Part shown: in pieces, positions 9,640 to 53,218 of the stretch
Layout of the letters: every line of letters starts with the position of its first letter
Numbering within the stretch: the stretch's first letter is position 1
DNA from: a virus
Taxonomy: Duplodnaviria; Caudoviricetes
DNA: 60,137 nucleotides
Strand: one strand, 5' to 3'
Virus record (IMG/VR): IMGVR_UViG_3300010291_000001
Location: 1 to 60,137 of that record
The notes under the pieces: model-generated
What the model saw: only the letters and a program-made list of their open reading frames with translations
Told to the model about the DNA's origin: nothing
The model's database searches: none
Translations under genes and position numbers: made by a program

Positions 9640-10491
9640 CTACTTCCGTATCAGCTTTTTGATTTTCGGGAGCACCCCGCCGATCGTCTTACTGGCTTTC
9701 GGAAGTATTGCGCCGAGCTTTTCTCCCGGCCCGCCGACGTACGGCGCCAGGGCCGGAACAAGCCCGGCCCCGGCAGCAAGAGCGCCCATTTTTATCCCGG
9801 CGTCCCTGTACGTCGCCATCGCCCTGTCGAGAGCTTCCTTGTCCTCTTTGGACGAGAGGTGCTTCTTGGCTTTCGCCGTCGCCAGCCCTTCAGAGATAAG
9901 CGGCGCAAGCGCCAGCGGCGCGGTAAGTATTGCGGCTATCCCCAGCGGCACCGCAATAGGCGACCGGGCCAGCAGTGCTCCGATGCCGGAAAGCGCAAGA
10001 CCCAACGGTATCGGGGATGCCACCTGCGGCAGAAGGGTCGCCAGTATATTTGTGTTGAGGTGCCCTATTTCGTGGGCGGCGATCGCGCCCGCGGCCGGCA
10101 CCGTATTAGACACAAAAGCCATGTTCAGTCCAGGGAAGGCGATTCCACCCCCACCGCCTATCGCCTGCCCCATAAACTCATACAGCGACGCACCATACAG
10201 CTCGCGCTCGTATTTTGCAATATCCTTGTCTTTGTGAATGCCGGCCAGCCGCTCCGCTTCTTTTCTGATGGTGGGACCGTGCATTTTACCGAGATGCCTG
10301 CTTAGTGCGTCCCTGGCCTTCGCAATGCTGCTGTCCTGGTCAAACACAATCAGCAGGGGTTTGTGTGTATCCCGGAGCGGAGCGGTCATGTTGTTGTATA
10401 TTTCGGCAATCTGCTTTTTCGCAGAATCGTGTATGCTGTCCGGTAGAACAAGTTTCATTTGTTTTCCCCTTCCAGCCTGACCAGCCGCCAT
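9640..10491 (-). CDS. Putative membrane zinc metallopeptidase
   Basis: AAHEIGH (HExxH), two hydrophobic helices, then EGLAT as third-ligand region; basic amphipathic tail. Confidence 0.7.
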   Translation of the reverse strand: MAAGQAGRGKQMKLVLPDSIHDSAKKQIAEIYNNMTAPLRDTHKPLLIVFDQDSSIAKARDALSRHLGKMHGPTIRKEAERLAGIHKDKDIAKYERELYGASLYEFMGQAIGGGGGIAFPGLNMAFVSNTVPAAGAIAAHEIGHLNTNILATLLPQVASPIPLGLALSGIGALLARSPIAVPLGIAAILTAPLALAPLISEGLATAKAKKHLSSKEDKEALDRAMATYRDAGIKMGALAAGAGLVPALAPYVGGPGEKLGAILPKASKTIGGVLPKIKKLIRK

Positions 10492-12596
10492 TTATCGTCC
10501 GGCTGCTTCAGGAGAATAAACTCGTTTCCTATATCGCCCAGCGATTTCGCCTTTTTGCCGGTTATCGAAAACCTTATCCTGTCGGGCGTGCTGTATTTTA
10601 TATTGGCGACGCCCTGAAACACGGTTGATACCGTCCCCTTGCCGTAGCCGCCCGGTATGGTTCCCCTGAAACGGAAGTAACTGAGCGGGTGAGACGCCTG
10701 TCTTGCGACAAGCGTCGTTTTGTGTTGCTCGTCCGGCAGCCTGATGGTGGCCCATGAGTGTCCTGCCCGCGCCTTCTTGTCCCACATCCTTATGTCATAA
10801 TGTTTATGCCTGGCCCTGTGCCGCTGTATGACAAACGGCCACTTTTCGTTTTCGGTGCTCGTGATCTCGTGTATGCCTCTTGCCCTGTAGTCATGGCCGG
10901 ACCCGAGCTTTCTTATCGACGCCATCTGTTTTGCGAGCCGGCCGACGCCCCGTATAAACCCCAGCCCCCCGACCGCCCGGGCGGCTGCCCACGATGCCCC
11001 GCGCCCCAGGCCTCTTATACCGGACAGTATCCTACCCCTTCTCCTGATAATGGAGGGAAGCGTAAGTGCGCCCATTGTAACAGCCCCGCCCATGAGCGCA
11101 GCGCGCTGTCTCGGCGACATCGTCCATCGCGGGGTTTGTATGGCGTTCCAGAAATCTTTTACGGCTTTTTCCTTGCTTTCGGCCACGCGGTACACGTGTT
11201 GGTCTATGGCTCCGTCCCCGGTCTTGGGATCCGCTATATATTTATTGACCACCACCCTTCTCTGACCGGCAGGAAACGCCCGCAGGCCCCCGCGCCGCAC
11301 CCCGCGCCCGATTATCTGTTTTATTTTCATTGGATTATAATGGCCGTCCAGCAGGGATATCATGGTAGTGTCCGGCAGGTTAAGCCCCTCAGCCCCGGCC
11401 CCCGTTATCAACAGGATACGCTTGTTTCCCTTCCTGAAGTTGTCTACCGCCTGCTCTTTGAGATTTTGAGGCATCCCACCGGTAAACTTGGCAAATGGAA
11501 TGTTAAGCTTCGAAAGGGCTGTGCCCAGCGTCCTGGTCCCGTGATTCTTGAAGCTGGAATACATAAGAACACGGTTACGCGGGTCTGTGGCTATATGGTC
11601 GAGTGCGTCTTTTACGGCCCTTACGGCCTTTGAGCTGGCAAACGGCATACTGCGCTTTGAGGCGGTCAGGTATCCCGGATCATTGCTCACCTGTCTTGCC
11701 GCCATGGCCCTGTTGACGATGCGCTCAGCCAGGTTTATATCGAGTTTCTTGTCTTTGAGCAGGGATATCTCTCTTTTCGACAAGTCCTTCCTAAGCGCCC
11801 TCCTGTAGGCTGTACGCTGTACCTGGTTCATCGGCACTATAACGAATTGCTCTTTTACGGAGGGCATGTCGGGGGCTTTGGCTGTTGGCATCATAAACAC
11901 GTCGCCGAACATCCTCGCCATGGTTCTTTGATTATAATAGCCTTTCAGCTCGCCGGACCCCGGCTTGCCGGTTACTATCGCCCTGATATGCTCCATTACC
12001 CCGCGCAGGCGCCGGTTTTCGAACTTGCGGCTGAATTCCCCGATTTTCATTGGCCTTGGAGAAATTACGTTGTGGATGTTTAGTGCTTCATAAACATTGT
12101 TTTGCGCCGGTGTTGCGGTAAGGCCTATCATGTGCTTTGACCGGCCCCGCAGCCTGCGGAGTACGGCGTGATTTACAGTCGTTTTGTCCTTGGCCCGATG
12201 AATTTCATCTGCTATGACAGTGTCGTAGCCGGTAAGCCGGGGCGCGTTTTTGCGGGCCAGGTCATAGGATATTACCGAAAAGTCTCTGTTCCTGAATCTG
12301 TCTATATCTCTCGATGAGTTGATGACGCCCACCGACGCATTTGTGTACTTTCTGACATTATCGGCGAAATTGCGTTTCAGGGCGGCCGGAACGACAACCA
12401 GCGCGTTGCGCGACCTGCCGGTCTCTCTGAGCCTCAGTGCCGCAGCTATGCTGGCAAGGGTCTTGCCCGTGCCGGTGTCGGCCGCGTTTACGCCGCTTCC
12501 TTGGCGCTCAATGAATTTGACGAAATTCGCCTGGTCGCCGGTGAGGCGGACGCCTTTTTTGAGGCCTGGAATATCGGCAAAGTCGTTAGTCTTCAT
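10455..12596 (-). CDS. SNF2-family helicase fused to a LigD-type 3'-phosphoesterase domain
   Basis: DTGTGKT, DEIH, TATP, AGAEGLNL, QIIGRGVR; C-terminal FVIQRH...HYDIR...SWA...HPLSY..F.GTIP.GYGKG.V. Confidence 0.85.
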   Translation of the reverse strand: MKTNDFADIPGLKKGVRLTGDQANFVKFIERQGSGVNAADTGTGKTLASIAAALRLRETGRSRNALVVVPAALKRNFADNVRKYTNASVGVINSSRDIDRFRNRDFSVISYDLARKNAPRLTGYDTVIADEIHRAKDKTTVNHAVLRRLRGRSKHMIGLTATPAQNNVYEALNIHNVISPRPMKIGEFSRKFENRRLRGVMEHIRAIVTGKPGSGELKGYYNQRTMARMFGDVFMMPTAKAPDMPSVKEQFVIVPMNQVQRTAYRRALRKDLSKREISLLKDKKLDINLAERIVNRAMAARQVSNDPGYLTASKRSMPFASSKAVRAVKDALDHIATDPRNRVLMYSSFKNHGTRTLGTALSKLNIPFAKFTGGMPQNLKEQAVDNFRKGNKRILLITGAGAEGLNLPDTTMISLLDGHYNPMKIKQIIGRGVRRGGLRAFPAGQRRVVVNKYIADPKTGDGAIDQHVYRVAESKEKAVKDFWNAIQTPRWTMSPRQRAALMGGAVTMGALTLPSIIRRRGRILSGIRGLGRGASWAAARAVGGLGFIRGVGRLAKQMASIRKLGSGHDYRARGIHEITSTENEKWPFVIQRHRARHKHYDIRMWDKKARAGHSWATIRLPDEQHKTTLVARQASHPLSYFRFRGTIPGGYGKGTVSTVFQGVANIKYSTPDRIRFSITGKKAKSLGDIGNEFILLKQPDDKWRLVRLEGENK

Positions 12597-15418: not shown

Positions 15419-16957
15419 GTGGGCAGACGGCTAAAGCGGTCCGAATGGATCTGTGAGTCGGTCTGTGCGCCGGAAGGCCACAAGCTTTCCATAGACCTTA
15501 TGCCGTGGTGGCGTCAGATTTACGACAGGTCGTTCAAGAACTGGCACCACTCGGTTCTTCTTTCCGGCAGGCAATGCGGCAAATCAACGACGGCGATAGC
15601 CATGATGATAACAGACATCATGCGGCCCAACACCACCGTCATATACGCGATGCCTACGGATCCCCACGTCGCGGAACTGTCGAAAACACGCTTTTCCCCG
15701 ATGTGGGCCTCGATTGTTCGCGGCAAGCCGGACATAATAGTGGACAATGTTCACGAAAAGTCCTTCTCCAACGGCTCCAACATTTTATTCAAATACCTGT
15801 ACGGCGGCAGGAGCGGCCTGCGAGCCAGGGGCACCACGGCCAACGCGCTGTACCTGGACGAGATACAGAACATAGTCGTCGACCAGATATCCATCATACA
15901 GGAAACGCTGGCGTTTCGGCTGTATGAGGGCCAACAGAAATGGCAGACGTTCGCCGGGACGCACATGTCCCGGCTGTCCGCCCCGAACGTTTACTGGCAG
16001 ATGTCCACGAAGCGGGAGTGGTTTATCCATTGTTGTTGCGGTCACTGGAATTTTCCCGACGAGTCTCTTATCGGAGACAGGTTTCTCGTCTGTTCGTCAT
16101 GCGGCGGCAGGCTGGACCCCCGCGACGGCCAGTGGGTCCGCACCGGGCCGGATGACGCCACATGGGAGGGATTCAGAATACCCCAGATACTGTCCCCGTT
16201 CGTTCCGTTCGATGCGGGTGTGGCGGACTCGATCAATGATAAAAGAAAGAAGTACTCCAGGCAAAGATTTCTGAATGAAGTCATGTGTATGCCGTATGAC
16301 GCCGGCGTACTATGGATAACGCCGAACGAGCTCAGAAGCATCATGACGCCGGAAGTAAAATACTATAACATAATAGACAATATTGAAGCCGGCTCATATT
16401 TCATGGGCATAGACTGGGGGTCCGCCGAGTCGTCCGGAAACTCCAATACCGTCGTGACGATCGTGATGGTGCGCGCCGGCCTGGTAGAGGTCAGGCATAT
16501 AAGGAAGTTTGACGCGGGCGAAGGCGATTTTGATTATCAGCTTGAGCAGATCCGCCAGCTCGCCGATAAGTTCGACATAAACGTTATTTGCGCCGACTGG
16601 GGGTTCGGGGCATTTCAAAACCAGAGGCTCCGCAAGATGTGCAAGGCGCAGCTGATAGAAGTCATGTACACGTCGCAGTCGGCTTTTGCGTCTTACAACC
16701 GCAAGGACGGCAGGTGGCACGTTGACAGGACTCAGGCCCTTGATGATCTGAAAATGGATCTGGTCGATCACAAGAATATCCTGTTCCCTCCGCAGGAGTA
16801 CGTTCAGCACATTGAGAAAGAGTTCTATTCGCTGGAGCGTGTCGAGGATATCGACAAAGGCAAGGTCTCATACGAGCATGACCAGCAAAACCCGGACGAT
16901 GCGGTTCATTCCCTGTTTTACGCCGTCTTCGCAGCCAAGAGATATGTTCACCTGTGA
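15419..16957 (+). CDS. terL: Terminase large subunit
   Basis: GRQCGKST, LYLDEIQ, zinc-binding CCCGH/CSSCG, GIDWG, ADWGFG, PDDAVHS. Confidence 0.92.
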   Translation: MGRRLKRSEWICESVCAPEGHKLSIDLMPWWRQIYDRSFKNWHHSVLLSGRQCGKSTTAIAMMITDIMRPNTTVIYAMPTDPHVAELSKTRFSPMWASIVRGKPDIIVDNVHEKSFSNGSNILFKYLYGGRSGLRARGTTANALYLDEIQNIVVDQISIIQETLAFRLYEGQQKWQTFAGTHMSRLSAPNVYWQMSTKREWFIHCCCGHWNFPDESLIGDRFLVCSSCGGRLDPRDGQWVRTGPDDATWEGFRIPQILSPFVPFDAGVADSINDKRKKYSRQRFLNEVMCMPYDAGVLWITPNELRSIMTPEVKYYNIIDNIEAGSYFMGIDWGSAESSGNSNTVVTIVMVRAGLVEVRHIRKFDAGEGDFDYQLEQIRQLADKFDINVICADWGFGAFQNQRLRKMCKAQLIEVMYTSQSAFASYNRKDGRWHVDRTQALDDLKMDLVDHKNILFPPQEYVQHIEKEFYSLERVEDIDKGKVSYEHDQQNPDDAVHSLFYAVFAAKRYVHL

Positions 16958-17204: not shown

Positions 17205-17567
17205 TGGTGGAGGTGGCGGGGATCGAACCCGCGTCCGGAACTATTTCGCGCTTGACCTTCTTCATGCTTAGTCGGTTTGTTTTGGCCGGTAACCAACAAA
17301 CCGGCGAGCCGTCTTTCCGGTACCTGTCATTCAGTCTTTCCTGAAAGCCATTTGGTCTTTCCCAAAGGCCGGCAGTTCTTTCCTGCTGTCACCCGCTGTT
17401 GTGTCCCGGCTTCCGCTACTGCGGGCCCTACGGAGTCGGGGGCTGCAATTAAGCAGCCTTGCGTATTGCCGTGGCAGGTTATGCGCAGTCGACTTTTTAC
17501 GAGGCCTGTCGACCAACCTCGACATGCTTCTTCAAACGCTCGATACCCGTCGATTCCATTCACCCCC
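17205..17567 (-). ncRNA. ssrA: tmRNA
   Basis: 5' GGGGGTG pairs with 3' CACCTCC-ACCA giving G3:U70; TCGAC D-loop region; T-arm GCGGGTTCGATCCCCGC; pk1; tag frame ending GCT GCT TAA inside a hairpin; 363 nt. Confidence 0.95.
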
Positions 17568-21932: not shown

Positions 21933-22648
21933 TGGAAAAGGATACTTGTCAGGGGATAATCGAGAAGCTGGCCGGCGATAAAGGCGTTACGGTCGATCAG
22001 GCCGGGCCGTTTCTCAAAAAGCTCGTTGATAAAATAAAGGCCGCTGAAAGCCGGCCAGTTAACCATGAGGCTGAGATGTATAAAGCCGCAGACGCGGACG
22101 AGCTGGCCGCTCACTGCATAGCGGCGGTCCGTGAGGAGCTCATGAAGTACGGGGACGTTTATAAAGACGCCGGCCCCGGCTCCAAGATTGGAGCATGGCT
22201 GAAACCCACCGCCCCGATGCTTGCGGCAATAGGCGTAACATTGGGGGTCGGTGAGCTCAGGAACCTGTTGCGCAGCGTACACAGCAGCAAGAAAGTGGAA
22301 AGAAGCCGCGAGTGGCTTAAGCGGAACGACCCGGAGCTGGCAAAAGACCCCAAGTTTAACTTTTATTTCAATACGCTGAAAGACTTCGCTCCGCACGTGG
22401 CAGCCAACCCACTGTCCGCGATACCCATTCTTCAGGAAATGAAGGAGTGGGGCTATGTCGGCCAGAACACGATAAACGCCATTACCAAAATAGAGCAGAC
22501 GCTCGGCGGCATAGAAAAACAGGAACACGAGGCCGGCAGGGCCTTTGAAGAGGCGGCAGCGAAGAGAATGCAGTTAATGGGAAGCATCGGCGAGCTGTTC
22601 GGCGAGCCCGGCGCCGGACCCAGCGCGGGAGGTGGGGGGACTTCGTGA
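21932..22648 (+). CDS. Putative virion protein with a hydrophobic helix
   Basis: Coupled ORF; KLAG; ...F.TLKDFAPHVAANPL.A. Confidence 0.55.
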   Translation: MEKDTCQGIIEKLAGDKGVTVDQAGPFLKKLVDKIKAAESRPVNHEAEMYKAADADELAAHCIAAVREELMKYGDVYKDAGPGSKIGAWLKPTAPMLAAIGVTLGVGELRNLLRSVHSSKKVERSREWLKRNDPELAKDPKFNFYFNTLKDFAPHVAANPLSAIPILQEMKEWGYVGQNTINAITKIEQTLGGIEKQEHEAGRAFEEAAAKRMQLMGSIGELFGEPGAGPSAGGGGTS

Positions 22649-24894
22649 GCGACATTATAAAAGAAATATCGCTTGACGTTATCAGCAAGCTCGCCGATGA
22701 TACAGCCGCCAAAGAGGTCGTCAGTCCGTATATCCCCGACGACGTCAAGAAGTATATAGAAGAAAACCGCCAGGCGTGGAAGGCCGACGACAAGCATATA
22801 TATCTTCTTGTCGTGGCGCTCAGCGCGTCCGACTTCTTTGGACCCAACACGAGGGGTGACTATTTCCCCGAAAGCGCCCTTCTCGGCATACAGCACGACT
22901 GGGAGGCAAAAAGGTACAATCCGAAGGGCAAGAAGGACACGCGGGTCCCCAGGTACAAGACGTTCGAGTGGGCGAAGGTTTACCGAGACCACAACCAGAA
23001 CCAGCCCATAGGCGACGTTCTCAAGGCGTTCTGGGATGATGACTGCAAAAGAGTGCTCTGCGTGGTCAGGGTAAGTAAGGATCTCGCCCCCGATGTTGAG
23101 CAGATGATAGCCTCCGGTATGAGGCCGGCCTTCAGTATGGGACTGAAAGAACCGTTCGACTTCTGCCTTCACCCCGATATGCCGGTTTTTACGCAGGCGG
23201 GCTGGAGGAAGATAAAAGAAGTCAAGGTAGACGACTACGTATTTACCAGCTCCCGCGCCTTCAAGCGCGTAAAAGGCGTGTCGTCGAGCTTTCCCGAAGA
23301 GAGGGTTTCCATTTCCACCTCGCTTATGCCGGATCTTGTCGTGTCGCCTAACCATTTTATATTCATTGAGGGTGAATCCGGCCTCGTAAAGCGCCCGGCG
23401 TGTCAGCTTAATATAGGCGATAAGATGGTTATACCGCTTTACGCCGGATGCGAAGATGACGACGTAAACAGCAATAATGTTATACTATCGTCCATGTTCA
23501 GGCGGGACAGTGGGGCATCAAAGGAAAAATACCTGGGAGAGGCGATAGGCCTTTTATTTAACGGCAAGTGGGCCGTGCGCGGCAAGTGGTACAGCATCAG
23601 CGCGCTGGGCCTGGCCGACGCCGAGGGCCTGTTGAACGCTTTCTGGTCTCTTGGAATACCTGCAAGGCTTGATAGTCACAAGCTGTTTGTGTATACGCCG
23701 GGGCTCGTCTATAGCCTTCTGGGCTGTGACGACTACATTGTCGAGCCAAAGGATATAGATGGCCTTGGCGTGTACTTTAATGGAACGCACATTGTTGTCC
23801 CCATAACCGAGATCAGGCGCAGCGCGAACGACGAGGAGTTTTTCGATCTTACTGTCGAGGAAGACGAAAACTATCTTTCGTATTTTCTTGTAAGTAATTG
23901 CTCTATATGTGGTTACAAGAGAACCCCCGGCGATGTCGGTTGCCTGCATACGCGCCTGTCCCTGAACGAGTTTGACGAACATACCCGCAAGAAGATATAT
24001 CGCATTAACAAGGTCTTCTTCTTTCATGACCTTTCAGTTGTTGGGCAGAACCCGGCGGATAAAACCGCATGGGGTCTTTTGAAGGTTGCCTCAGAGAAAG
24101 CCATACGGTCGGGATCTACCTCGCAAAACATAGAGAAAACAGTCTTCAAAAGGCACCCGGCCACCGTAATAGAACCGGACAGCCCGTCCGGTAAGGTATT
24201 CATGCGGGTGCAGATGTTGTCGGGGTCCGAGCGCCCGTTTAACGACAGCGTTCTTTCCGCGCTTGCCAAACGGGGCCCGGACGCGGTGTTTTCAGCCCTT
24301 ATGAAGCTGGGCATGGTTCTGTCGCCTTCTGAATATTACAAATATAGGCTTGCCGGCGGCGATAAGCTGGAGTCCCCGCCCGCCCCTCCGTCCGATGTCG
24401 CCATGGACAGTGTTATGCCGGTCCTGGAGCCGATGATGTCCGAGAGGTCCTGTCTGTATGAGCCAATGAGGGCCAGGATAATCCGAATGATAATTATCGG
24501 GAAAAGACCTGACCCTCTGCCGGACGCAAGCAAGGTCGGATCCGAATATCTGTCATACCGCGACAGCGTGAACGCCATAGTGCTGAACAAAGAGGCCTCG
24601 GCTGCAAGCGTCATATTGCCCGCGGCGGGCTTTTTTGCTCCGTATTACCTGTCGGCCCATTACCGCAGGAGGGCGTTCGAGGGATATCCGCAGGGGATGA
24701 TAGCGCGGGCGGTATCAAGATACGCCCTTCCTCTTGCTGTTGCCGGAGCGATAGGCGCTCCCCTGGCCGCACAAAAGGGCAAGGCCTGGGTAAAGGCCCT
24801 GTACCGCGGGCTCTCGAAAGCCAAGGTTGCCGGCGGCGACGAAAACATGATTATAGCTGATTTGCTTGCTGATTATGAGGTTGCGTTGAATTAA
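22645..24894 (+). CDS. Prohead-protease-like protein containing an intein
   Basis: GPN.RGDYF, YRDH.N, FSMG...FDF|CSICG...C.H, F.DLSVV..PADKTA; lies upstream of scaffold and capsid genes. Confidence 0.7.
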   Translation: MSDIIKEISLDVISKLADDTAAKEVVSPYIPDDVKKYIEENRQAWKADDKHIYLLVVALSASDFFGPNTRGDYFPESALLGIQHDWEAKRYNPKGKKDTRVPRYKTFEWAKVYRDHNQNQPIGDVLKAFWDDDCKRVLCVVRVSKDLAPDVEQMIASGMRPAFSMGLKEPFDFCLHPDMPVFTQAGWRKIKEVKVDDYVFTSSRAFKRVKGVSSSFPEERVSISTSLMPDLVVSPNHFIFIEGESGLVKRPACQLNIGDKMVIPLYAGCEDDDVNSNNVILSSMFRRDSGASKEKYLGEAIGLLFNGKWAVRGKWYSISALGLADAEGLLNAFWSLGIPARLDSHKLFVYTPGLVYSLLGCDDYIVEPKDIDGLGVYFNGTHIVVPITEIRRSANDEEFFDLTVEEDENYLSYFLVSNCSICGYKRTPGDVGCLHTRLSLNEFDEHTRKKIYRINKVFFFHDLSVVGQNPADKTAWGLLKVASEKAIRSGSTSQNIEKTVFKRHPATVIEPDSPSGKVFMRVQMLSGSERPFNDSVLSALAKRGPDAVFSALMKLGMVLSPSEYYKYRLAGGDKLESPPAPPSDVAMDSVMPVLEPMMSERSCLYEPMRARIIRMIIIGKRPDPLPDASKVGSEYLSYRDSVNAIVLNKEASAASVILPAAGFFAPYYLSAHYRRRAFEGYPQGMIARAVSRYALPLAVAGAIGAPLAAQKGKAWVKALYRGLSKAKVAGGDENMIIADLLADYEVALN
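23164..23898 (+). mobile_element. Intein (245 aa) with a degenerate LAGLIDADG remnant
   Basis: Starts CLHPDMPVFT..G..KIKEVKVDD.V, block B SPNH, block F FDLTVEEDENY, ends VSN before Cys+1. Confidence 0.88.
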
Positions 24895-45325: not shown

Positions 45326-45583
45326 CTATAAACAGCAGTTACTGATAAGTATTTTTATGGCGGCCTTGACACGAGCACTGGGGAGATACCGCCATAGCCA
45401 GATTTCCAGCATCACAGAACCGTCCTTTGAGTATTGCTTGACGCTGGCGATCGCGCTCCTTGCCGTGAAGTCTTGGTCATATATGCAGGGCAGCCCCGCC
45501 ACGAATTGGCCCAGCTCGCGAGTCTGGCGGCTTGGGGATTGCAGGCGATGCCAGCTTGTCTGTTGTGTGCTGTACATATACAT
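45326..45583 (-). CDS. Small orphan, MY-start
   Basis: AGGAG RBS, MYMYS. Confidence 0.45.
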   Translation of the reverse strand: MYMYSTQQTSWHRLQSPSRQTRELGQFVAGLPCIYDQDFTARSAIASVKQYSKDGSVMLEIWLWRYLPSARVKAAIKILISNCCL

Positions 45584-45656
45584 GGCGTTTCGCTCCTAGG
45601 GGGCGCTCCGACCAGAAAGCAATACCCGCTGTCCCGCACCATACACCCTATCGCTC

Positions 45657-45887
45657 CTAGACATAAAAACACGCCCCCCACCTTCCGAAATTCGGGTAAA
45701 GCCATTGCACGGTGAGGCGCAGACCCGGCCTGCTTCCGGTATTTCGGCTGACCATCAGCGCGATACCCATATCAAAAATTTCGCAAAACTCCCGCATCGC
45801 CCGCGCTACAACCTCAGCCTGTGGGCGTCTTTGAGGGAGATTGTCCGCGTTTTCACAACGAACAAGCGCCAAAGAACACACATACAT
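45657..45887 (-). CDS. Small orphan, MY-start
   Basis: AAGGAG RBS, MYVCS...CFYV*. Confidence 0.45.
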   Translation of the reverse strand: MYVCSLALVRCENADNLPQRRPQAEVVARAMREFCEIFDMGIALMVSRNTGSRPGLRLTVQWLYPNFGRWGACFYV

Positions 45888-46012
45888 TGTATCTCCTTTT
45901 TTTTCTAGCAACGCCGACAACCTCAGCCTCAGGGTGTTGCGCCAGGTATGAACGATGGCTGTTACCGTACAATACTCCTCAAATATTGCCGCTATGACAA
46001 GCGCCAAGCGGG

Positions 46013-46258
46013 CTAACCGGACTGCTCATACGACTTCTCCTTTTCCTGTGTTTGAAGTTCTTTGTGTACGCCGTCCCAGTCTATTTCTTCGGTGGTGTCG
46101 GATGTTTTTCGTATGTTCCCGGCTATTATCGATACCAGACGCCCGAATTCCTTGTTTGGCGTTCGGTCGATTTCTTTTGGGTCCCAGGCGAGCTCCCTAT
46201 GAGTCCCGTCCGAGCGCAACCGGAAACACCTTTTAAGCCTGTCAATATCAATGACCAT
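46013..46258 (-). CDS. Hypothetical protein
   Basis: Small ORF within the operon. Confidence 0.45.
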   Translation of the reverse strand: MVIDIDRLKRCFRLRSDGTHRELAWDPKEIDRTPNKEFGRLVSIIAGNIRKTSDTTEEIDWDGVHKELQTQEKEKSYEQSG

Positions 46259-46266
46259 GGCCGCAC

Positions 46267-46851
46267 TTACCACCTTAACGGCATCAGGACACCCCATGCC
46301 TCGTCGCCCTCCATTTTCCCGGTGAAGAACAAAACCGCGCTTTCGTCGAAAGTCCTTACGTTGCACTTTACATCAGAAAGCGCCTCGTTGATGATCTGGA
46401 TATAGCGCCCGTCAAACTTTTGCCCGTCTATAAATACGCTTTCCGGGTATTCCGTCATTCCGCCCCCCCCACATTTCGGGCAGACATGGTCCGGCAGGTA
46501 ACCCTCGCCATCACACGTATCACACTTCACGTCTTGTCCGCATTCGCTGCAAGTCGTACTGCCCGCTCCGTCGCAGTCATCGCACATCTTTCTTCTGCAG
46601 TCCCTGCATTCTGTCTGTATTGTTTTCTGCGGCGTTGCCGGGAACGCGCCGGTTGGCGGGTTTTTCAACGCCTCCTCGCGCAAGGACAGAAAATACGTTT
46701 TGATCTTGCCGGGCAGCGGACACGCGTCGGCGTCTCCGGGAGCATTTGTTAAGACGATTATGTGGCCGTCGGTTGCTACATATTGACCGTCAATTGTGTA
46801 TACTTCCGGATAAGATGTATTTGTGAATTTCTTTAGACTCTCTGTTTTCAT
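46267..46851 (-). CDS. Protein with a DnaJ-type CxxCxGxG zinc finger inside a clamp-like domain
   Basis: ATDGH; CDDCDGAG, CDTCDGEG, CPKCGGGG; C-terminal GVLMPLR. Confidence 0.7.
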   Translation of the reverse strand: MKTESLKKFTNTSYPEVYTIDGQYVATDGHIIVLTNAPGDADACPLPGKIKTYFLSLREEALKNPPTGAFPATPQKTIQTECRDCRRKMCDDCDGAGSTTCSECGQDVKCDTCDGEGYLPDHVCPKCGGGGMTEYPESVFIDGQKFDGRYIQIINEALSDVKCNVRTFDESAVLFFTGKMEGDEAWGVLMPLRW

Positions 46852-46949
46852 AACTCTCCCTCATCCTCTCTTTGCTTCCAGGCGTGCGGGTATATTTTTG
46901 GGCTGAGCTTGCAGCCCGACAGCGGACATTGCAGCATTTCCTGCTCCTT

Positions 46950-47147
46950 TCAAGAGCTACCCATAGGACGTTTCATCCTATTATAACGCGTTTCGTGCGA
47001 TATTTTATCTTGTTCAATGCGCACGAAGCAATCTTCGCCCTCCTTGAACACCGCGTATGATTGGTATTCTTCCGGCTTGGCCGCGTACCTGAGGCACAAA
47101 CCCTTTTTACTGCACTTCTCGTTTGCGCATTTCGTAATGTCCACCAA
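46950..47147 (-). CDS. Small Cys-rich phage protein
   Basis: DITKC....C.....C.RY......QSY..F. Confidence 0.6.
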   Translation of the reverse strand: MVDITKCANEKCSKKGLCLRYAAKPEEYQSYAVFKEGEDCFVRIEQDKISHETRYNRMKRPMGSS

Positions 47148-47847
47148 GGCTCTCCTTCACTTACAGTTTACACGCGAATCAGCTTTCTAAAACGCAACCA
47201 GTGTATGTTTTGCAAACTCGATGTTTCATGCCTGTCAAGGTTATTAATGAACGGGGTTATTACCCTTATCCCCCCGCACATGGTCAGCGAAAGACATCTG
47301 CGGCTTTGAATTGCGCACTTTCTGCTTTCGCATACGGGGCAACTACACAGCTCTTTGCTTTCTATATACATAACCACCCCCTCTGTATGCGCGCGACCGG
47401 CCGGCCATACATGGAACGCATGAAGTCGCGTAGCCTGACGCCGGCCACCATCTTATGGTATGTGCCACACTGACAGAGCCCTTTCCCTGCTACATACACA
47501 ACCATTCTCCCTGGTAAAAGAAGACGTCGGACAGGTAAAATATCACCAGATGGGCAATGTGGCCGCCCTGCATTCTGGCGTAAGCGCCCTTTTCCTGCGG
47601 GCGGCACACGGCACAGACGCAAAGGTTTTTATAGCTCACATACATAACCGCCTCCCCTCATGTGCCGCAAGCCATGTGGCGTTTTTGACATTTGAGGTAA
47701 AGCACGACAAGGTTCTAAAGTAGGGCACACTCATGTCCAGGTATGGAAAGCAAGCGTCGACATACTCGAACCGAAGATAGAATATTGTATCTTGTGGTAA
47801 CCGGTCCGAAGGTAAAGTGTTCGGTCGGTCACAGAGACGCCTATGGC

Positions 47848-48066
47848 TTATGTACACTTTTCATTCCCTCCCCACACAAAAAACCCGTATACGGAAAGAC
47901 CCAGAAACGCCCCGAACTGAACCGCGGCAGCGTATTCCCCATTTGATATGTTATGTGTCAGCCACATTGTGTTGCTTATCATCCACAACACAAAGCCGAA
48001 CCTGTATTTACGGACATTGAAGGCTGCTCCTATCAACGAGATAACACACGTTGTCCAGGCAAACAT
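47848..48066 (-). CDS. Small PnuC-like three-helix membrane protein
   Basis: SLIGA..NV.K...GF.LW..SN..W......G........F.....YGF..W. Confidence 0.65.
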   Translation of the reverse strand: MFAWTTCVISLIGAAFNVRKYRFGFVLWMISNTMWLTHNISNGEYAAAVQFGAFLGLSVYGFFVWGGNEKCT

Positions 48067-50310
48067 TTGGGCTCCGTTTCCCACACGCCTAGTGCCACTA
48101 ACGCCCATAAGCTTGGGCGGCGCACGACCGTCTCCTTCATGCGCCGTCCGCGTATGGTCATTGTGGAGCGCCGTACCCCAGAGCGCACCCGGTCGCCGGG
48201 GCCTGTTGCGTACTTGACGTACTCTGACCCGCGACTATCAACAGAAATATAAACCCAAACCGCCCGGCTCCCTGCGCAGGCCGTTGACAGAAGGCTCGGG
48301 CAATTTGCTATTGCAACGCATAACTTCACGTTACCGGTTCTCGGTTTCCCTCTCATTTCAGTCGCCGGTTTTGTTGTCGAGCTGCAATCCAGAAACCACA
48401 CCACGCTGTCGGGTGTTGTGTACATTGTCCAATCTCCCGCCTTGGGGACTATACATAGAACCCACACGGATACATTAGGCATGTTTTCGCCTGTTGATGT
48501 TATTGTGTTACTGTCGACGCACGCCTCAAGGCGAAGCGCCGCACAACGCCAATAATCTTTTGGCTTGTGTTGCACGAGGCACATGCGCCCACGTGGCCGC
48601 CAACAATCAGGCGCATTGCTGATGCCATATTGTCGGGTACGCAGGAGCAATCCGCCACGATATGGGCAAAGCCTGTGCTGGCGTTCCGGTGGATTATACA
48701 TAAAGCAGGTGTTCTCCCAACAAGTCAAGACACAGGTGGCAGTCGTAAGTCCCGTGGCGACACGGTATAACCGAGAACACCCATCTCCCCCACGGGTACA
48801 CGGTAAACCTAAACTTACGCCGTCTACGGAAGGTTGTCAGGTACAGCCTTATACAAAGTATTAGCGGGCGCTCGGCGTGAGCGGGACTGTTGGACGGTAT
48901 TGCCAGGACGGGGTGGTCAAGGTCCAGCTTAAACCGCGGGGACCGCGGGGTTCCGTAAACAAAACGATCCGACGCGTACGTTGACGGGGCCACATGACCC
49001 CAAAGCCCCTGTTTGGGCGGATTATACATAACAACCTCCTTCGACAACCGACCATTCGACCTGTCATTCTTTGGACGGCTGGGGGCGCCTGGCGTTTGCC
49101 CGTATGAACAGCTTAATAGCGCCATCAGAGGCCCAAAAGACCGACCGTGCAATCATACGTTGGCATATATCCAGACCATCAAAATTCAACTCCTCGTTGG
49201 GGCTGCGGTATGACGGCTTATACATATACACTATCTCCCAAATAGCGCGTGATGCCCGCGAGGTCGTGCACGGGGGTTTTGGACCAGCCGCGCAGCCAGC
49301 CCACGCCTGATAGCCCGAACACCTGGGTTTCTATGATTATATACACCCTTATCGCGCGGTTGCGTCCGATCCCCCCGGTACGACTCATGATACTATTCAG
49401 CTCATCGGGCCTGCAGTTGACATTGAAGGGCGCGAGCGACGGACTATACATAAAGCCCCCTTAGGTGTTCTTTTGCGCGGGATCCATACAGGCGAAAATT
49501 CTTAGCGTTGCCTTTAAAGTAGTTGCCTCTAAAGTAAAGGAGAACCTCGCATGTGACGACGTGGCAGCGACGGCTCGGCTCCAGCGCATGACATAGCTCC
49601 TGGGCCGGCCCGACCCCCTCTACCCAGTCCATCCGCGACCCCCCAGGGCCTCCAGTATATGCGGTTAACATTGTGCCCCAGTTATATATTTCCCGCTGGA
49701 ACAGCGCAGATAGATTATACATAAAGGTCTCCTTTGTTGAGCCGGGCGACCCCCCAAGCTGGGCTGGACATCCGGGGTTTTCTGGCGTCTGCCCATGCGC
49801 GTATCTTGACGCCCTGGCTAACTCGGGGACCGCTGAAAACCCTCCCCTAAAACAGTCCCGATACAGAGACGACCGGGCCTACAGTGCCGTCCGGCTTTCC
49901 GGCTAGACGGTTAGATGATGAGCCATACACAAGACACCCCCTAAACCACGGACTCCCTAATGATCCTTCTGGCGTAAGGCCGCTCTTCCGCCTGTTCTGC
50001 ATACCTGAACGAAACAAACCCTAAGTATGCGACAGACCCCGGCGACCGGTGTAGCCACGATATTTCGTTATACAGCAATATAAACGGCCCTGCGGCGCTT
50101 ACCCAATAAGTAACGCACCACGCCTTAACCGCCCCGTTGATGACCAGGTTTTGCCAGTTTCCCGCGTCGTTATCGGCAAAAACCGCGGACTGTCGACCAT
50201 ACACAATCCCTCCCGGCTCGAACTGCCTTGTCGTTCTCTGCGGCCACGCCTGATCCGTTGAAGTGAGCATGGCGGGTTGTCTGGCGCTTGGTTTGTACAC
50301 GGCTGTTCCC

Positions 50311-50646
50311 CTAGACCATAACCCAATAATGTATGAACTGTAAACACCCATCAGCCATCTTCGACGGCTCATGCACACCAAGATCCCACACAGCGGTGGC
50401 TATTGCTGCCAGCACTGGTATCCCGGGCGACTTAGGCGTTAAATGGGATATCAGGCAGTCGACAGCCACACAGCGGCCAACCTGCGCACATTCTTCCAAC
50501 ATTGCCAGCGGGAACCACCAGCTCGTTCCGTGGGGCACCTTTTTCTTTTGTTCTGCCTTTTGGGTTGAGCCATTTATGATTTTATAGTTGAGGTACGGGA
50601 TCGAAACTGTGTGTCTGAATCGATCTGTTGTTCGTTTTATAAACAT
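50311..50646 (-). CDS. Orphan, paralog of 50656-51009
   Basis: Shared MFI, YKI.N, AEQ, WW.P, CV..DC.I.HL.P.SPGIPV. Confidence 0.7.
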   Translation of the reverse strand: MFIKRTTDRFRHTVSIPYLNYKIINGSTQKAEQKKKVPHGTSWWFPLAMLEECAQVGRCVAVDCLISHLTPKSPGIPVLAAIATAVWDLGVHEPSKMADGCLQFIHYWVMV

Positions 50647-50655
50647 ATGTCCCTC

Positions 50656-51009
50656 CTAAACAGTAAGCCAACGCTTTATAAACCCCAAACACCTGACCTG
50701 CATCGTGTCCAGCCCCCCGAGCGGCAGCTGCTCGTACGTACCAAAGACCCATTCGATCATAGCCGCCGCCGTCGGAACCGGAATCCCCGGCGATGCGGGA
50801 AATAAATGCTCTATTGTGCAGTCGATGCCCACACAGCCGCCCATGTGCGTATATTTTGCTGGCGTCGTTATGGGGTCCCACCACCTTGCCCCACGAGGCG
50901 CCTCCGTCATTTGTTCCGCCCTTTTAACCCCGTCGTTTGTAATCTTATAAGTAAAAAGTGGGATTATGGCCGTGCATCTGGTTTGGTCTGTTTCCAGGTT
51001 TATAAACAT
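50656..51009 (-). CDS. Orphan, paralog of 50311-50646
   Basis: Same shared motifs; GGAGG RBS. Confidence 0.7.
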   Translation of the reverse strand: MFINLETDQTRCTAIIPLFTYKITNDGVKRAEQMTEAPRGARWWDPITTPAKYTHMGGCVGIDCTIEHLFPASPGIPVPTAAAMIEWVFGTYEQLPLGGLDTMQVRCLGFIKRWLTV

Positions 51010-51256
51010 GCGTCCTCCCTAAACCGTGAGCCGGCGGACCGTAAGATATAAAAACGCCTCGACATCGTCGTACGAATACGTAAACACAAACGTTCTGGTA
51101 CGTAACCAACCACCTAAATCGTTCGGGTGGATGACCACACGCGCCGGCCACACGCTTATCGGCGTGCGCTGGGTCCGCATCGGCCGGCACGGCAACTTGT
51201 AATAATGATGGTGCGTACATGCACTGTCTCCCTAAAACCCATTTTACGCCATTATG

Positions 51257-51286
51257 TTTATAACTTAAAAACGGTAAAATTTTATA
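51257..51286. promoter_or_regulatory. Overlapping divergent promoters: class A variant (minus) and class B variant (plus)
   Basis: GTTATAAA with upstream AAAA on the minus strand; TAAAATTTTA at 51275-51284 on the plus strand. Confidence 0.5.
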
Positions 51287-51298
51287 TGGAGCAACGCT

Positions 51299-53218
51299 AT
51301 GGGCGACTACGAGCATAGAGACGAGTTTTTTGAGAGACAGAGGCGCATTGCCGGCCGACTGTACAGTGAGGCTGCGTACGGCAAACGCGAGCTTCGTGAT
51401 AGGTTTAATAACGTTACAGTCAATACCCAAATCGCAGCCAGGACAATGTTTAATGATTTGGGCCAGTTTACCACCACTGCCGGCATGGCGGCCCAGAGCA
51501 TATTGGGCGATTTCGGACTCGGCAGGTTCATGTATAACCCCGATTTCAGCGGCATGAGCGGCATAGAGGCGTCTCGCCTGCCATACTTCCTCCCTGGACT
51601 TAGGCTGCTCAATGATCCAAGAAGATACGATGCGGAGTTCCTGAGTCGTTATTACGCCCTCGAAACCGGCCGGCGCAGCGAAAACTGGGGCGACTGGGTA
51701 AGGGCGGTGGCATGGGGGGCAGGCGTGCCCGGCAGACTAGGCAGGGCACTTACCGCACCGATCGGCTGGATTGGCGGTCGGGGGCTTAGAGAGGACGTGA
51801 TTCGTCTTGGCGGGGTCCAGTATGCCAGAGCCATGAGTCTTATAGGTCTCGGAGGCCCTGATTCAACCCCCGAGCAAATAATGCTCACACACATGGGCAG
51901 AAGGTTTTGGGGCGATACTGATGATTATGAAGCTGTCGGCGCTGCGGCGGCGCGTATAGCGCGTGACGTGATGCTTGACCCAGATCTGGCCGATATGGAC
52001 CCGGCTGAAAGAAGGTCACATTTCAAAATGGCACTTGAGTCCGGACGGCTTGGTCCGGTTGACATGACGGATCCGAACTTTAGGCAAGACGCCCACAGGC
52101 AGATAAAGGACATGGTGGAGAAGTTCAGCAGCCTACGCCGCGCCCTACAGATGACAACAAAAGAGTTTGAAGCATTTGCCGACCGTGTCGGCCACCACAC
52201 TGTCAGCGGAATGGCCACGGGCAAGATGATGGGCGCCATATCGGATATTTCAAGGATGTACGGCTCCGGCCAGGGCAGGATAGCCGGCGAGATCGCCGCG
52301 CAAGCCCAACAGGCGTTTGCCGGACTTATGACACGCCCTATGGCGGCTGCGGCTGGAGCCGAGGTTTCATACGCTGTTGTCGACACCGGAATGGCCAATC
52401 TTTTCCATCATGGCCGCCTCACATCCGAAGCCATAAGTATGATAGCCGCAAGGCACAACGACCAGGTGACAAGAATGGTGGCGCTTGGGCTTCGCAGCGG
52501 CGAAGAGAGTCTTGGCGGCATGATACGGGCCGGCGCAAGACAGCTGGGCACACCCGAAGGAGCAGTTGCGGCGCTGTTTGCGGCAGACCTGCCAATGGAG
52601 GCGGCCCAGGAAATACGAATCATAGAGATACTAAGAATAAACGGAATAGATATGGACGACCTTCCTTCAGTTGGCCCGGGCTTTACAGAGGACTCGAGGG
52701 TACACAGGGCAATTGCAATTATCTCGCGTCACTTTAATATGCCGGCGACGGCGGCGCACAACATACTTGTAAAACTAAAAAGAGAGGCGGTAACGGGCCG
52801 GAAAGCCATCGCTGAAGGCCTGGATCCGGAAAGATACAAGGCAATAGCAAGGACATTTGCCGGCCACGAGGCCGCGCGGATATTTGAGGCGGTTGCTGAT
52901 CCAGCACGCGCCCCAGCCATAAGAGAGGCTGCGCTTGCGCCGGACTTCACCATGGAAGCGCTTGGGGCGGCGTTTGAAACCGAGACTGCCGTTACCGAGA
53001 CACACAAAGACGAAGTTGAGCTTTTTGAGGCTATAGCGGACAGTACTGCAGAGGCCGCAAGGATAGTAAGAGAGGAGGCGGAGCGGAGGGGAAAAGAAAG
53101 GGGAGCGTTTCATCCGGGGTCGGCGATGACGCGCCGTACACGAATACCCATAAGATCCGTTCCCGCCAAACGCACGACGAGCCCTTCTGGCGCCGCAGTT
53201 AACGTTTGGCCGTGGTAG
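51299..53218 (+). CDS. Tape-measure-like helical protein 1
   Basis: 639 aa, Ala/Gly/Met-rich, upstream of baseplate genes. Confidence 0.5.
   Translation: MGDYEHRDEFFERQRRIAGRLYSEAAYGKRELRDRFNNVTVNTQIAARTMFNDLGQFTTTAGMAAQSILGDFGLGRFMYNPDFSGMSGIEASRLPYFLPGLRLLNDPRRYDAEFLSRYYALETGRRSENWGDWVRAVAWGAGVPGRLGRALTAPIGWIGGRGLREDVIRLGGVQYARAMSLIGLGGPDSTPEQIMLTHMGRRFWGDTDDYEAVGAAAARIARDVMLDPDLADMDPAERRSHFKMALESGRLGPVDMTDPNFRQDAHRQIKDMVEKFSSLRRALQMTTKEFEAFADRVGHHTVSGMATGKMMGAISDISRMYGSGQGRIAGEIAAQAQQAFAGLMTRPMAAAAGAEVSYAVVDTGMANLFHHGRLTSEAISMIAARHNDQVTRMVALGLRSGEESLGGMIRAGARQLGTPEGAVAALFAADLPMEAAQEIRIIEILRINGIDMDDLPSVGPGFTEDSRVHRAIAIISRHFNMPATAAHNILVKLKREAVTGRKAIAEGLDPERYKAIARTFAGHEAARIFEAVADPARAPAIREAALAPDFTMEALGAAFETETAVTETHKDEVELFEAIADSTAEAARIVREEAERRGKERGAFHPGSAMTRRTRIPIRSVPAKRTTSPSGAAVNVWPW

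Follow-up and report, generated by a model that had tools for sequence, protein, structure and literature searches.

A chain of small genes with a common Met-Tyr start joint opens a leftward operon of an uncultured tailed phage

The IMG/VR record IMGVR_UViG_3300010291_000001 is a linear sequence of 60,137 bp from an uncultured tailed phage, and it is rated about 47% complete. The whole record is referred to here as the window; its proteins are also present on a contig of 128,584 bp. From 51220 to 47371 by start coordinates, the minus strand carries an array of 16 consecutive small genes (g1 to g15, with g10b after g10), which begin with Met-Tyr (13 genes) or Met-Phe (three genes). In 33 long genes of the window, Tyr and Phe together account for 7.3% of codons. 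The short sequence at which one gene of the array gives way to the next, with its Shine-Dalgarno (SD) sequence, start codon, and second codon, is called the joint. A sequence-only reading of this DNA had described about 15 chained micro-genes with a common junction of ribosome-binding site and ATGTAT. All 15 starts that it listed are present on the minus strand (51220, 51009, 50646, 50300, 49930, 49722, 49451, 49225, 49029, 48701, 48456, 47857, 47645, 47499, and 47371). The array is real, but the junction is less uniform than described, because four of the 15 starts are GTG (50300, 49930, 47857, and 47499), two are ATG-TTT, and the one at 48456 has no SD. The unit size given there, about 130-370 nt, fits 13 of the 14 start-to-start intervals (128-370 nt). 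The remaining unit is 599 nt long and also contains a sixteenth gene, g11, with an SD-backed ATG-TTT start at 48066.

A divergent gap of 78 nt separates the head of the array from a plus-strand gene at 51299 that encodes a 639-aa product. A candidate sigma-70-like promoter (TTTACC-16-CATAAT; 51251..51278, minus strand) lies some 30 nt ahead of g1; nothing beyond its match to the consensus marks it, and sites of this type are no more frequent in the region than by chance. Because the array lies 78 nt from the divergent gene and directly behind this promoter-like site, it forms the initial 4 kb of a leftward operon. Past the array, this operon continues into the genes for DUF1064 (45254) and an AAA ATPase. 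It is of early type, with the block as its promoter-proximal head. No tRNA or known RNA family was found inside it.

Start motifs of the joint type are concentrated in this block. The minus strand of the 60-kb window has 19 copies of ATGTAT, 12 of them within 45583-49722, and TATGTATA occurs eight times on the minus strand (seven in the array) and never on the plus strand. Sites with an SD core followed by RTGTAY within 3-13 nt number 15 in the 4.1-kb block, compared to 0.81 ± 0.89 (maximum 4) in 500 dinucleotide shuffles. Twelve of these sites are listed starts, and the other three are at 48425, 49231, and 50204; across the window there are 21 on the whole minus strand and five on the plus strand. 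The 13-mer of the class-B joint (see below), with up to two mismatches, occurs eight times in the window, six of them in 48446-49724. All of the 16 starts but one (48456) are preceded, at a distance of 4-12 nt, by an SD core that is 4 nt or longer. ATGTAT is reused at 10 starts, and the variants ATGTAC, GTGTAT, GTGTAC, and ATGTTT are found at the other six. Codon 2 is TAT in 10 of the 13 Tyr starts, whereas TAT has a share of 42% in the long genes (P = 0.012), and this preference may hint at a nucleotide-level constraint or at shared descent. The feature is real and statistically strong. On the opposite strand, a 641-aa open reading frame (ORF) at 53222 (plus) has TAT after its first ATG, and it is the sole long ORF outside the leftward operon to do so; a crude gene finder favored a later start for this ORF.

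An information profile (logo) of the joint was built from 17 aligned starts. Only the purine-rich SD at -12 to -7, T at -1, and RTG-TAY-R are conserved, with positions 0-5 ascertained through the way in which the sites were chosen. Beyond about 12 nt on either side of the start, identity is at background (0.23-0.29). As had been noticed from the sequence, the upstream ORF often ends inside the next start; this is the case at 9 of the 14 joints after g1, where the stop falls 8-10 nt past the start. Upstream genes end ...YV-stop at the joints into g6, g7, g8, g10, and g10b, ...CT-stop at the joint into g12, and ...LC(M/I)-stop at the joints into g13, g14, and g15. Included among these nine are an upstream frame that has no start (into g6) and one that is a mini-ORF of eight codons (into g10b). 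At four of the 14 joints, the upstream TAG lies within the next SD (TTTAGGGAGG type), 7-8 nt before the start, and at one joint (after g8) there is a gap of 35 nt.

The joints fall into three subtypes. Class A (g1-g5) has the form TTTAGGGAGG-N4-6-start, and the TAG of the preceding gene belongs to the SD. Class B (g6-g10b) has the form CTTTATGTATARNCC, and the preceding gene ends ...YV-stop 8 nt inside the next one. Class C (g12-g15) has the form GGTTRTGTATRTRR, and the preceding gene ends ...LC(M/I)-stop 10 nt inside the next one. With the hexamer masked, neighboring joints are more alike than distant ones, and 169 of 5000 permutations of their order reach the observed difference.

Several other explanations of the repeated sequence were considered and rejected. 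A C-terminal tag (...YV or ...LCM) was one of them. Because these recurring C-termini are ATGTAT read in its two other frames, the common element is the start hexamer and not a tag. Eleven joints were folded as RNA and are unstructured (z between -0.99 and +1.29, above 0 in 8 of them), and a hairpin or attC-like joint was rejected, as there is no inverted repeat at the joints and no stable fold. Promoter-like sites in the block are at chance level (6, compared to 5.4 ± 2.2 in shuffles), with only the g10 joint flagged. Terminator-like sites are also at chance level (10, compared to 7.6 ± 2.5 in shuffles), and none is at a joint. An array of promoters formed by TATAAT in the class-B joint was rejected on the grounds that only three perfect hexamers occur, none is in class A or C, and the counts are those of chance. 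The block seems to be transcribed as one unit and to have initiation regions that are open. Programmed +1 frameshifting of the prfB type relies on CUU-U after an SD-like run. Frameshifting of this kind at the joints was rejected because every downstream frame has its own SD and start.

The units are described here in operon order, all on the minus strand, with codon scores from a model trained on the 33 long window genes. The first unit, g1 (50945..51220), starts ATG-TAC (MYAPS) and has 91 codons. Its coding status is ambiguous (codon score -0.135; GC content at third codon positions, GC3, of 0.46), and its frame conflicts with another one, 51195-51019, which ends ...RRLTV-stop at the class-A joint before g2. 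The paralogues g2 (50656..51009; MFIN..., 117 aa; codon score +0.108) and g3 (50311..50646; MFIK..., 111 aa) follow. Gene g4 (49941..50300) starts GTG-TAC (VYKPS) and has 119 codons and a codon score of +0.101; the public gene call for it begins 10 codons further in, at an ATG. Gene g5 (49715..49930) starts GTG-TAT and runs for 27 codons to an in-frame TAG at 49847-49849. Beyond this TAG, the frame is open for 43 more codons and ends ...DLYV-stop at the g6 joint. The TAG lies within an SD-like TTTTAGGGGAGGG, after which there is no start codon, and g5 looks like a single cassette interrupted by a stop.

Class B begins with g6 (49444..49722; MYNLS, 92 aa; codon score +0.127), which ends ...GLYV-stop in the start of g7. 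Gene g7 (49218..49451; MYSPS, 77 aa; codon score +0.09) ends ...SVYV-stop in the start of g8 and has a weak match to phrog_37458 (E 0.0031). About 10 N-terminal codons of g7 are common to g8 (49064..49225; MYKPS, 53 aa), which is followed by the 35-nt gap. Gene g9 (48694..49029; MYNPP, 111 aa) has the best SD of the block, AAGGAGGT, and ends ...LLYV-stop in the start of g10. Gene g10 (48033..48701; MYNPP) is an open frame of 222 codons with a codon score of -0.02 and about equal GC content at first, second, and third codon positions (GC1, GC2, and GC3). It contains a second start, an SD with ATG-TAC at 48425, and it probably represents decayed cassettes. A mini-ORF of eight codons, MY....YV-stop (48449..48475), lies between two joints that are 19 nt apart and looks like the remnant of a cassette without a body. 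It leads into g10b (48358..48456; MYSPQ, 32 codons), which retains the class-B joint and has no SD.

Gene g11 (47848..48108, with the SD-backed start at 48066) encodes a three-helix membrane protein, and its stop lies inside the start of g12. It matches PF04973 (PnuC/NMN transporter, where NMN is nicotinamide mononucleotide) with E 5.5e-9 over only the last third of the profile (positions 112-173 of 175), and it also matches phrog_1880. The N-terminal part of the PnuC match is absent from every frame. From its sequence, g11 is either a stand-alone three-helix "part-transporter" or a gene fragment retained in the array.

Class C follows with g12 (47636..47857), which starts GTG-TAC (VYISH), has 73 codons and a codon score of -0.069, and ends ...RRLCM-stop in the start of g13. 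Gene g13 (47490..47645; MYVSY, 51 aa) has a Cys-rich N-terminus and ends ...EWLCM-stop in the start of g14. Gene g14 (47362..47499) starts GTG-TAT (VYVAG), encodes 45 aa, has a codon score of +0.155, and ends ...GWLCI-stop in the start of g15. The last unit, g15 (47168..47371; MYIES, 67 aa), has about 20 N-terminal codons in common with g13, including a CxC..C motif, and a weak match to phrog_21140 (E 0.0099). The first gene past the array, g16 (46950-47147, minus), has an N-terminal Cys cluster weakly like those of g13 and g15 (z 5.8 and 4.2). Class C may be a diverging family that includes g16. Further downstream in the same operon, both of the outlying Met-Tyr starts named in the sequence-only reading, at 45887 and 45583, are present. 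They belong to g19 (45657..45887; MYVCS, 76 aa), which ends ...CFYV-stop, and to g20 (45326..45583; MYMYS, 85 aa).

Apart from those of g2 and g3, the bodies of the units are unrelated to each other. The observation that the junction is conserved and the bodies are divergent was borne out, as 170 of 171 unit pairs are unrelated in body, and only the joint (SD, U-rich spacer, and RTG-TAY) is common. When joints were stripped, only g2 and g3 were similar, whether compared as protein, as DNA, or in all 3x3 frame pairings. Frame-shifted duplicates were rejected as a source of the units, because the 3x3-frame and DNA comparisons of the bodies gave only g2/g3. In anchored alignments, similarity spans 4-20 codons past the start and then drops abruptly to background. 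The shared modules are about 35 nt in g9/g10 (MYNPP...), about 30 nt in g7/g8, about 60 nt in g13/g15 (the CxC..C motif), and about 35 nt in g14/g15. In g7/g10, about 20 nt upstream of the start are common, with a 6-nt indel. In contrast, similarity in g2/g3 is spread over the whole length, which is ordinary divergence. The abrupt ends could be accounted for by a 5' module that was reused or recombined, or by selection acting strongly on nothing but the first codons, and a reused or recombined module seems to fit them better than even divergence does.

Evidence for coding differs between units. On the minus strand, 96% of the block lies within ORFs of 45 codons or more, compared to 61 ± 9% (maximum 87%) in 300 shuffles. 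The codon model favors the proposed frame in g2-g9, g11, g13, and g14, and it is neutral or negative in g1, g10, g12, and g15; scores in the proposed frame are above zero in 10 of 15 units. The paralogues g2 and g3 are 43% identical, their ratio of nonsynonymous to synonymous divergence (dN/dS) is 0.33, and their third codon positions are the most diverged. By these sequence measures, g2 and g3 are real protein-coding genes under purifying selection. Seven orphans have coding-like GC3 (0.59-0.69, compared to GC2 of 0.35-0.49). The richness in Cys, Trp, and Arg that had been noted in the products holds: they have 4.0% Cys, 2.5% Trp, and 9.8% Arg, compared to 0.8%, 1.2%, and 6.3% in the 33 long window genes. 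The 12 orphan units are also poor in Lys, Asp, and Glu. Structure prediction, which had been suggested as a way to find a shared fold, gave poor models for the units that were modeled (g2/g3, g4, and g9). Feature scores from ESM Atlas for g4 and g9 (best 0.79 and 0.76) are within the noise range.

Pfam and PHROG scans of the array proteins gave only one match clearly below E 0.001, that of g11. Searches with g2, the 639-aa neighbor, and a g2/g3 profile matched only themselves among 5.8 and 1.84 billion proteins; the profile search was an exhaustive HMMER search and returned g2 and g3 only. Seven window proteins are singleton clusters in the protein collection. Phage records contained no DNA or protein match. 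Among IMG/VR viral contigs, no relative was found for the 639-aa neighbor, a 194-aa neighbor, the large terminase (TerL, 15419-16957), or a TerL alignment; metagenome contigs gave none for the 639-aa neighbor, and genome contigs gave none for the TerL alignment. Twelve homologues of TerL were found, of which the two closest have 60% and 58% identity. The stretch with the TerL of 58% identity (L002) is syntenic with the window over 1-28 kb and ends before the array. Its positions 1-21512 have a GC content of 45%, compared to 53% in the window, a wide difference in composition for phages that are related. The exact 15-nt class-B joint was found in 94 IMG/VR stretches, with a single match in each of the 80 listed, and the class-B stretches richest in ATGTAT are AT-rich (21-37% GC). 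From these single matches and AT-rich carriers, the joint is therefore no shared currency among the sampled phages. The statement that no integrase or reverse transcriptase is in the window stands, since neither PF00589 nor PF00078 was matched in it; a resolvase was also not found in this window, which is about 47% of the genome. A limited literature search, too narrow to claim that the feature is unpublished, found no description of a Met-Tyr joint or a translational-joint cassette.

Other genes of the window that could be named encode a DnaB-type helicase, a PD-(D/E)XK nuclease, an AAA ATPase, and a DUF1064 protein, and nearly all of the remaining genes are orphans. A full-length transfer-messenger RNA lies just past the TerL gene (17205-17567, minus; Rfam RF00023, 125.9 bits, E 7e-49) and was missed by ARAGORN. 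In a 713-aa ORF (10455-12596, minus), an SNF2/DEAD helicase is joined to a LigD_N 3'-phosphoesterase domain at the C-terminus, an unusual fusion. A 749-aa ORF (22645-24894, plus) has a weak match to the intein-splicing family PF14890 (30.2 bits, with a cut-off of 35.8 bits).

We favor, with moderate confidence, a reading of the array as early mini-genes that are coupled in translation, are built on a reused joint for initiation, and undergo birth-and-death turnover. About 16 back-to-back genes of 27-119 codons would each have their own strong SD, a U-rich spacer, and AUG or GUG followed by UAU or UAC (or UUU). Each upstream ORF would stop 8-10 nt inside the next gene or inside the next SD, and this placement of stops and starts suggests that ribosomes ending one mini-gene can restart on the next. 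The joint may be a reused, unstructured translation-initiation module that spread locally by duplication or short-homology recombination. Such a spread would yield three neighboring subtypes and 4-20 shared N-terminal codons on unrelated bodies. The bodies appear to turn over fast, in a birth-and-death manner, and the decayed units point to such turnover; recombination at the joint is plausible. The products would be small early accessory proteins, and a function in anti-defense or host takeover is suggested only by their promoter-proximal position. Because the coding, composition, and decay results differ by unit, the block is read as a mix in which some genes are under selection, some ORFs are young or under weak selection, and others are decaying. 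Selected-looking proteins are those of g2/g3, g4, g6-g9, g11, g13, and g14, while g1, g5, g10, the mini-ORF, and g12 look decayed. The earlier description of a cassette-like diversification array is thus kept in part: the shared joint, unrelated bodies, abrupt heads, clustered subtypes, and decayed units agree with it, and exchange bounded by the joint is its hypothetical part.

Several observations weigh against this reading. ORF cover is also raised on the plus strand (80%), and the class-C pattern taken alone is within chance (3 matches, compared to 1.22 expected; reached in 13 of 100 shuffles). The 12 orphan units are nearer in composition to random sequence of equal base composition (Kullback-Leibler divergence, KL, 0.022) than to the phage proteome (KL 0.085), and the weak subset of units is indistinguishable from random composition (G = 20, 19 degrees of freedom). 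Eight other small genes of the operon are nearer to the proteome (KL 0.032) than to random sequence (KL 0.072). AlphaFold2 gave a confidence score (predicted local distance difference test, pLDDT) of 40.9 for g2/g3, and ESM Atlas gave pLDDT of 0.32 each for g4 and g9. From the random-like composition and the poor models, many of the ORFs may therefore lack functional products. Translation of the units is suggested by SDs, open frames, and codon scores, and duplication, recombination, and turnover are all deduced from a single genome. This reading also gives no reason for the use of Tyr in particular.

A possible but doubtful alternative is that the array is a set of cassettes bounded by recombination joints, in which mini-genes are gained, lost, and swapped between phages at the joint by short-homology recombination, and inserts receive a start and a stop from it. 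The shared 5' module on unrelated bodies with its abrupt loss of similarity, the stretch of about 20 nt that g7 and g10 share upstream of the start, with the 6-nt indel, and the body-less mini-ORF between two joints are consistent with this. As every joint holds both a stop and a start, joint-to-joint exchange would also keep genes translated. However, perfect sharing is limited to a core of about 11-13 nt, a short length for homologous recombination, the class-B joint is single in each listed IMG/VR stretch and is not a shared currency, and no recombinase was found in the window.

We consider it unlikely, though worth stating, that the array is a "proto-gene nursery", in which a copied joint (SD, AUG-UAU, and built-in stop) keeps whatever sequence lies between joints open and translated and so exposes near-random inserts to selection all the time; genes would be born and cassettes shuffled with no dedicated recombinase. 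A few inserts would then mature (g2/g3, g11, and the Cys-motif family) and others would decay. The Met-Tyr/Phe N-terminus may serve the whole set as a repressor operator or as a stability signal.

It is improbable that the block is an ordinary operon of unrelated small early genes whose start context has converged on a strong SD and an AU-rich, unfolded start in a genome of 53% GC, with the joint neither duplicated nor recombined. The strong SDs, the joint RNAs that are no more folded than shuffles, and the AU-rich TAT/TTT with TAT preferred over TAC at codon 2 all agree with convergence. Yet convergence would use many AU-rich codons, and 13 of the 16 starts here use Tyr; other SD-backed window genes start mostly with Lys, Ser, Ala, or Pro. 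The homology also exceeds what initiation needs, as it includes a 13-nt identity, common codons 3-10, and the upstream GAACACCT, and the joint subtypes are clustered by position.

Still more improbable is that most of the units are non-functional ORFs, either frames kept open for the passage of ribosomes along a leader (for protection from Rho or RNase, or for timing) or remnants of dead genes. The near-random composition of the 12 orphan units, the low model confidence, and the lack of a homologue for the orphans in the searched collections speak for it, but purifying selection on g2/g3, coding-like GC3 with positive codon scores in seven orphans, membership of g11 in a known family, and retention of the Cys motif in class-C proteins speak against it. 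Least probable of all is a set of operators, in which unstructured ...UUAUGUA... starts are bound by a RegA-like phage translational repressor, or cut by a nuclease, and the whole early set is thereby shut off at once: the joints are unstructured, UUAUGUA is found in six of them (g6, g7, g9, g10, g13, and g15), and the g9 joint contains UUGUUAUGUA, but class-A joints have no UUAUGUA, the joints do not have the 5' poly(A) of RegA sites, and the RegA family PF01818 was unmatched in the window, in a search that matched no control genome either and covered about 47% of the genome.

Orphan mini-genes, among them anti-defense and host-takeover factors, have their main reservoir in the early regions of phages. 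The array is an unusually clean case, in which a single promoter precedes about 16 chained genes, a single reused start/stop joint is read in three frames, and the bodies extend from proteins under selection to sequence that is random-like or decaying. The joint can be used as a search handle for hypervariable accessory-gene regions of uncultured phages. If the joint is the unit of reuse or exchange, the array would also provide a model in which de novo gene birth in viruses can be tested.

Coupled mini-genes on a reused joint have a known backdrop in translationally coupled operons and in the hyperplastic ORFan regions of phages. In coupled operons, the usual overlap of stop and start is 1 or 4 nt. 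The array resembles them in that the SD sits within the preceding ORF and the stop falls a few nt from the following start, a layout that permits termination-reinitiation. It differs in that its overlaps are 8-10 nt and in that one hexamer is reused, read in three frames, and joins unrelated orphans. Integrons consist of IntI, attI, attC, and Pc. Like integron arrays, the array has promoter-less cassettes in the same orientation behind one promoter, with a repeated boundary and unrelated contents. Unlike them, its boundaries lie inside coding sequence and have no attC-like imperfect inverted repeat or fold, and the tyrosine recombinase family PF00589 is unmatched in the window (about 47% of the genome). 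A diversity-generating retroelement was also not found, as there is no PF00078 match and no long direct repeat pair in the window.

RegA sites of phage T4, in the part of the source used here, overlap the AUG and are A+U rich and unstructured (Uzan and Miller, 2010; PMC3014915). The same part gives aaAAUUGUUAUGUAA as the RegA consensus from systematic ligand evolution by exponential enrichment (SELEX) and AAAAUUAUGUAC as the rIIB site (PMC3014915). Going by these descriptions, the array joints, taken as candidate operators, are like RegA sites in being unstructured, U/A-rich sites over the AUG of many early genes, and their UUAUGUA core resembles the rIIB and SELEX sequences. They differ in having no 5' poly(A) and in that a GC-rich SD belongs to the array joint.

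The closest described system is that of the cassettes with a promoter-early stem-loop (PeSL) in T4-type phages. In the hyperplastic regions of these phages, as the available portions of two papers describe them, a sigma-70 promoter and a terminator hairpin lie between genes, exchange at the motif has been demonstrated, and the ORFan genes are non-essential (Arbiol et al., 2010, PMC2839356; Comeau et al., 2014, PMC4122927). Compared with these accounts, the array is similar in having rows of small ORFans split by one repeated short regulatory motif, which is proposed to permit shuffling with expression. Unlike the PeSL, the repeat of the array is a translational joint (SD, start, and overlapping stop) that includes the first codons, its joints have no hairpin, and promoters and terminators are not in excess. 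If the joint is indeed the unit of reuse or exchange, it would represent a translational counterpart of the transcriptional PeSL cassettes.

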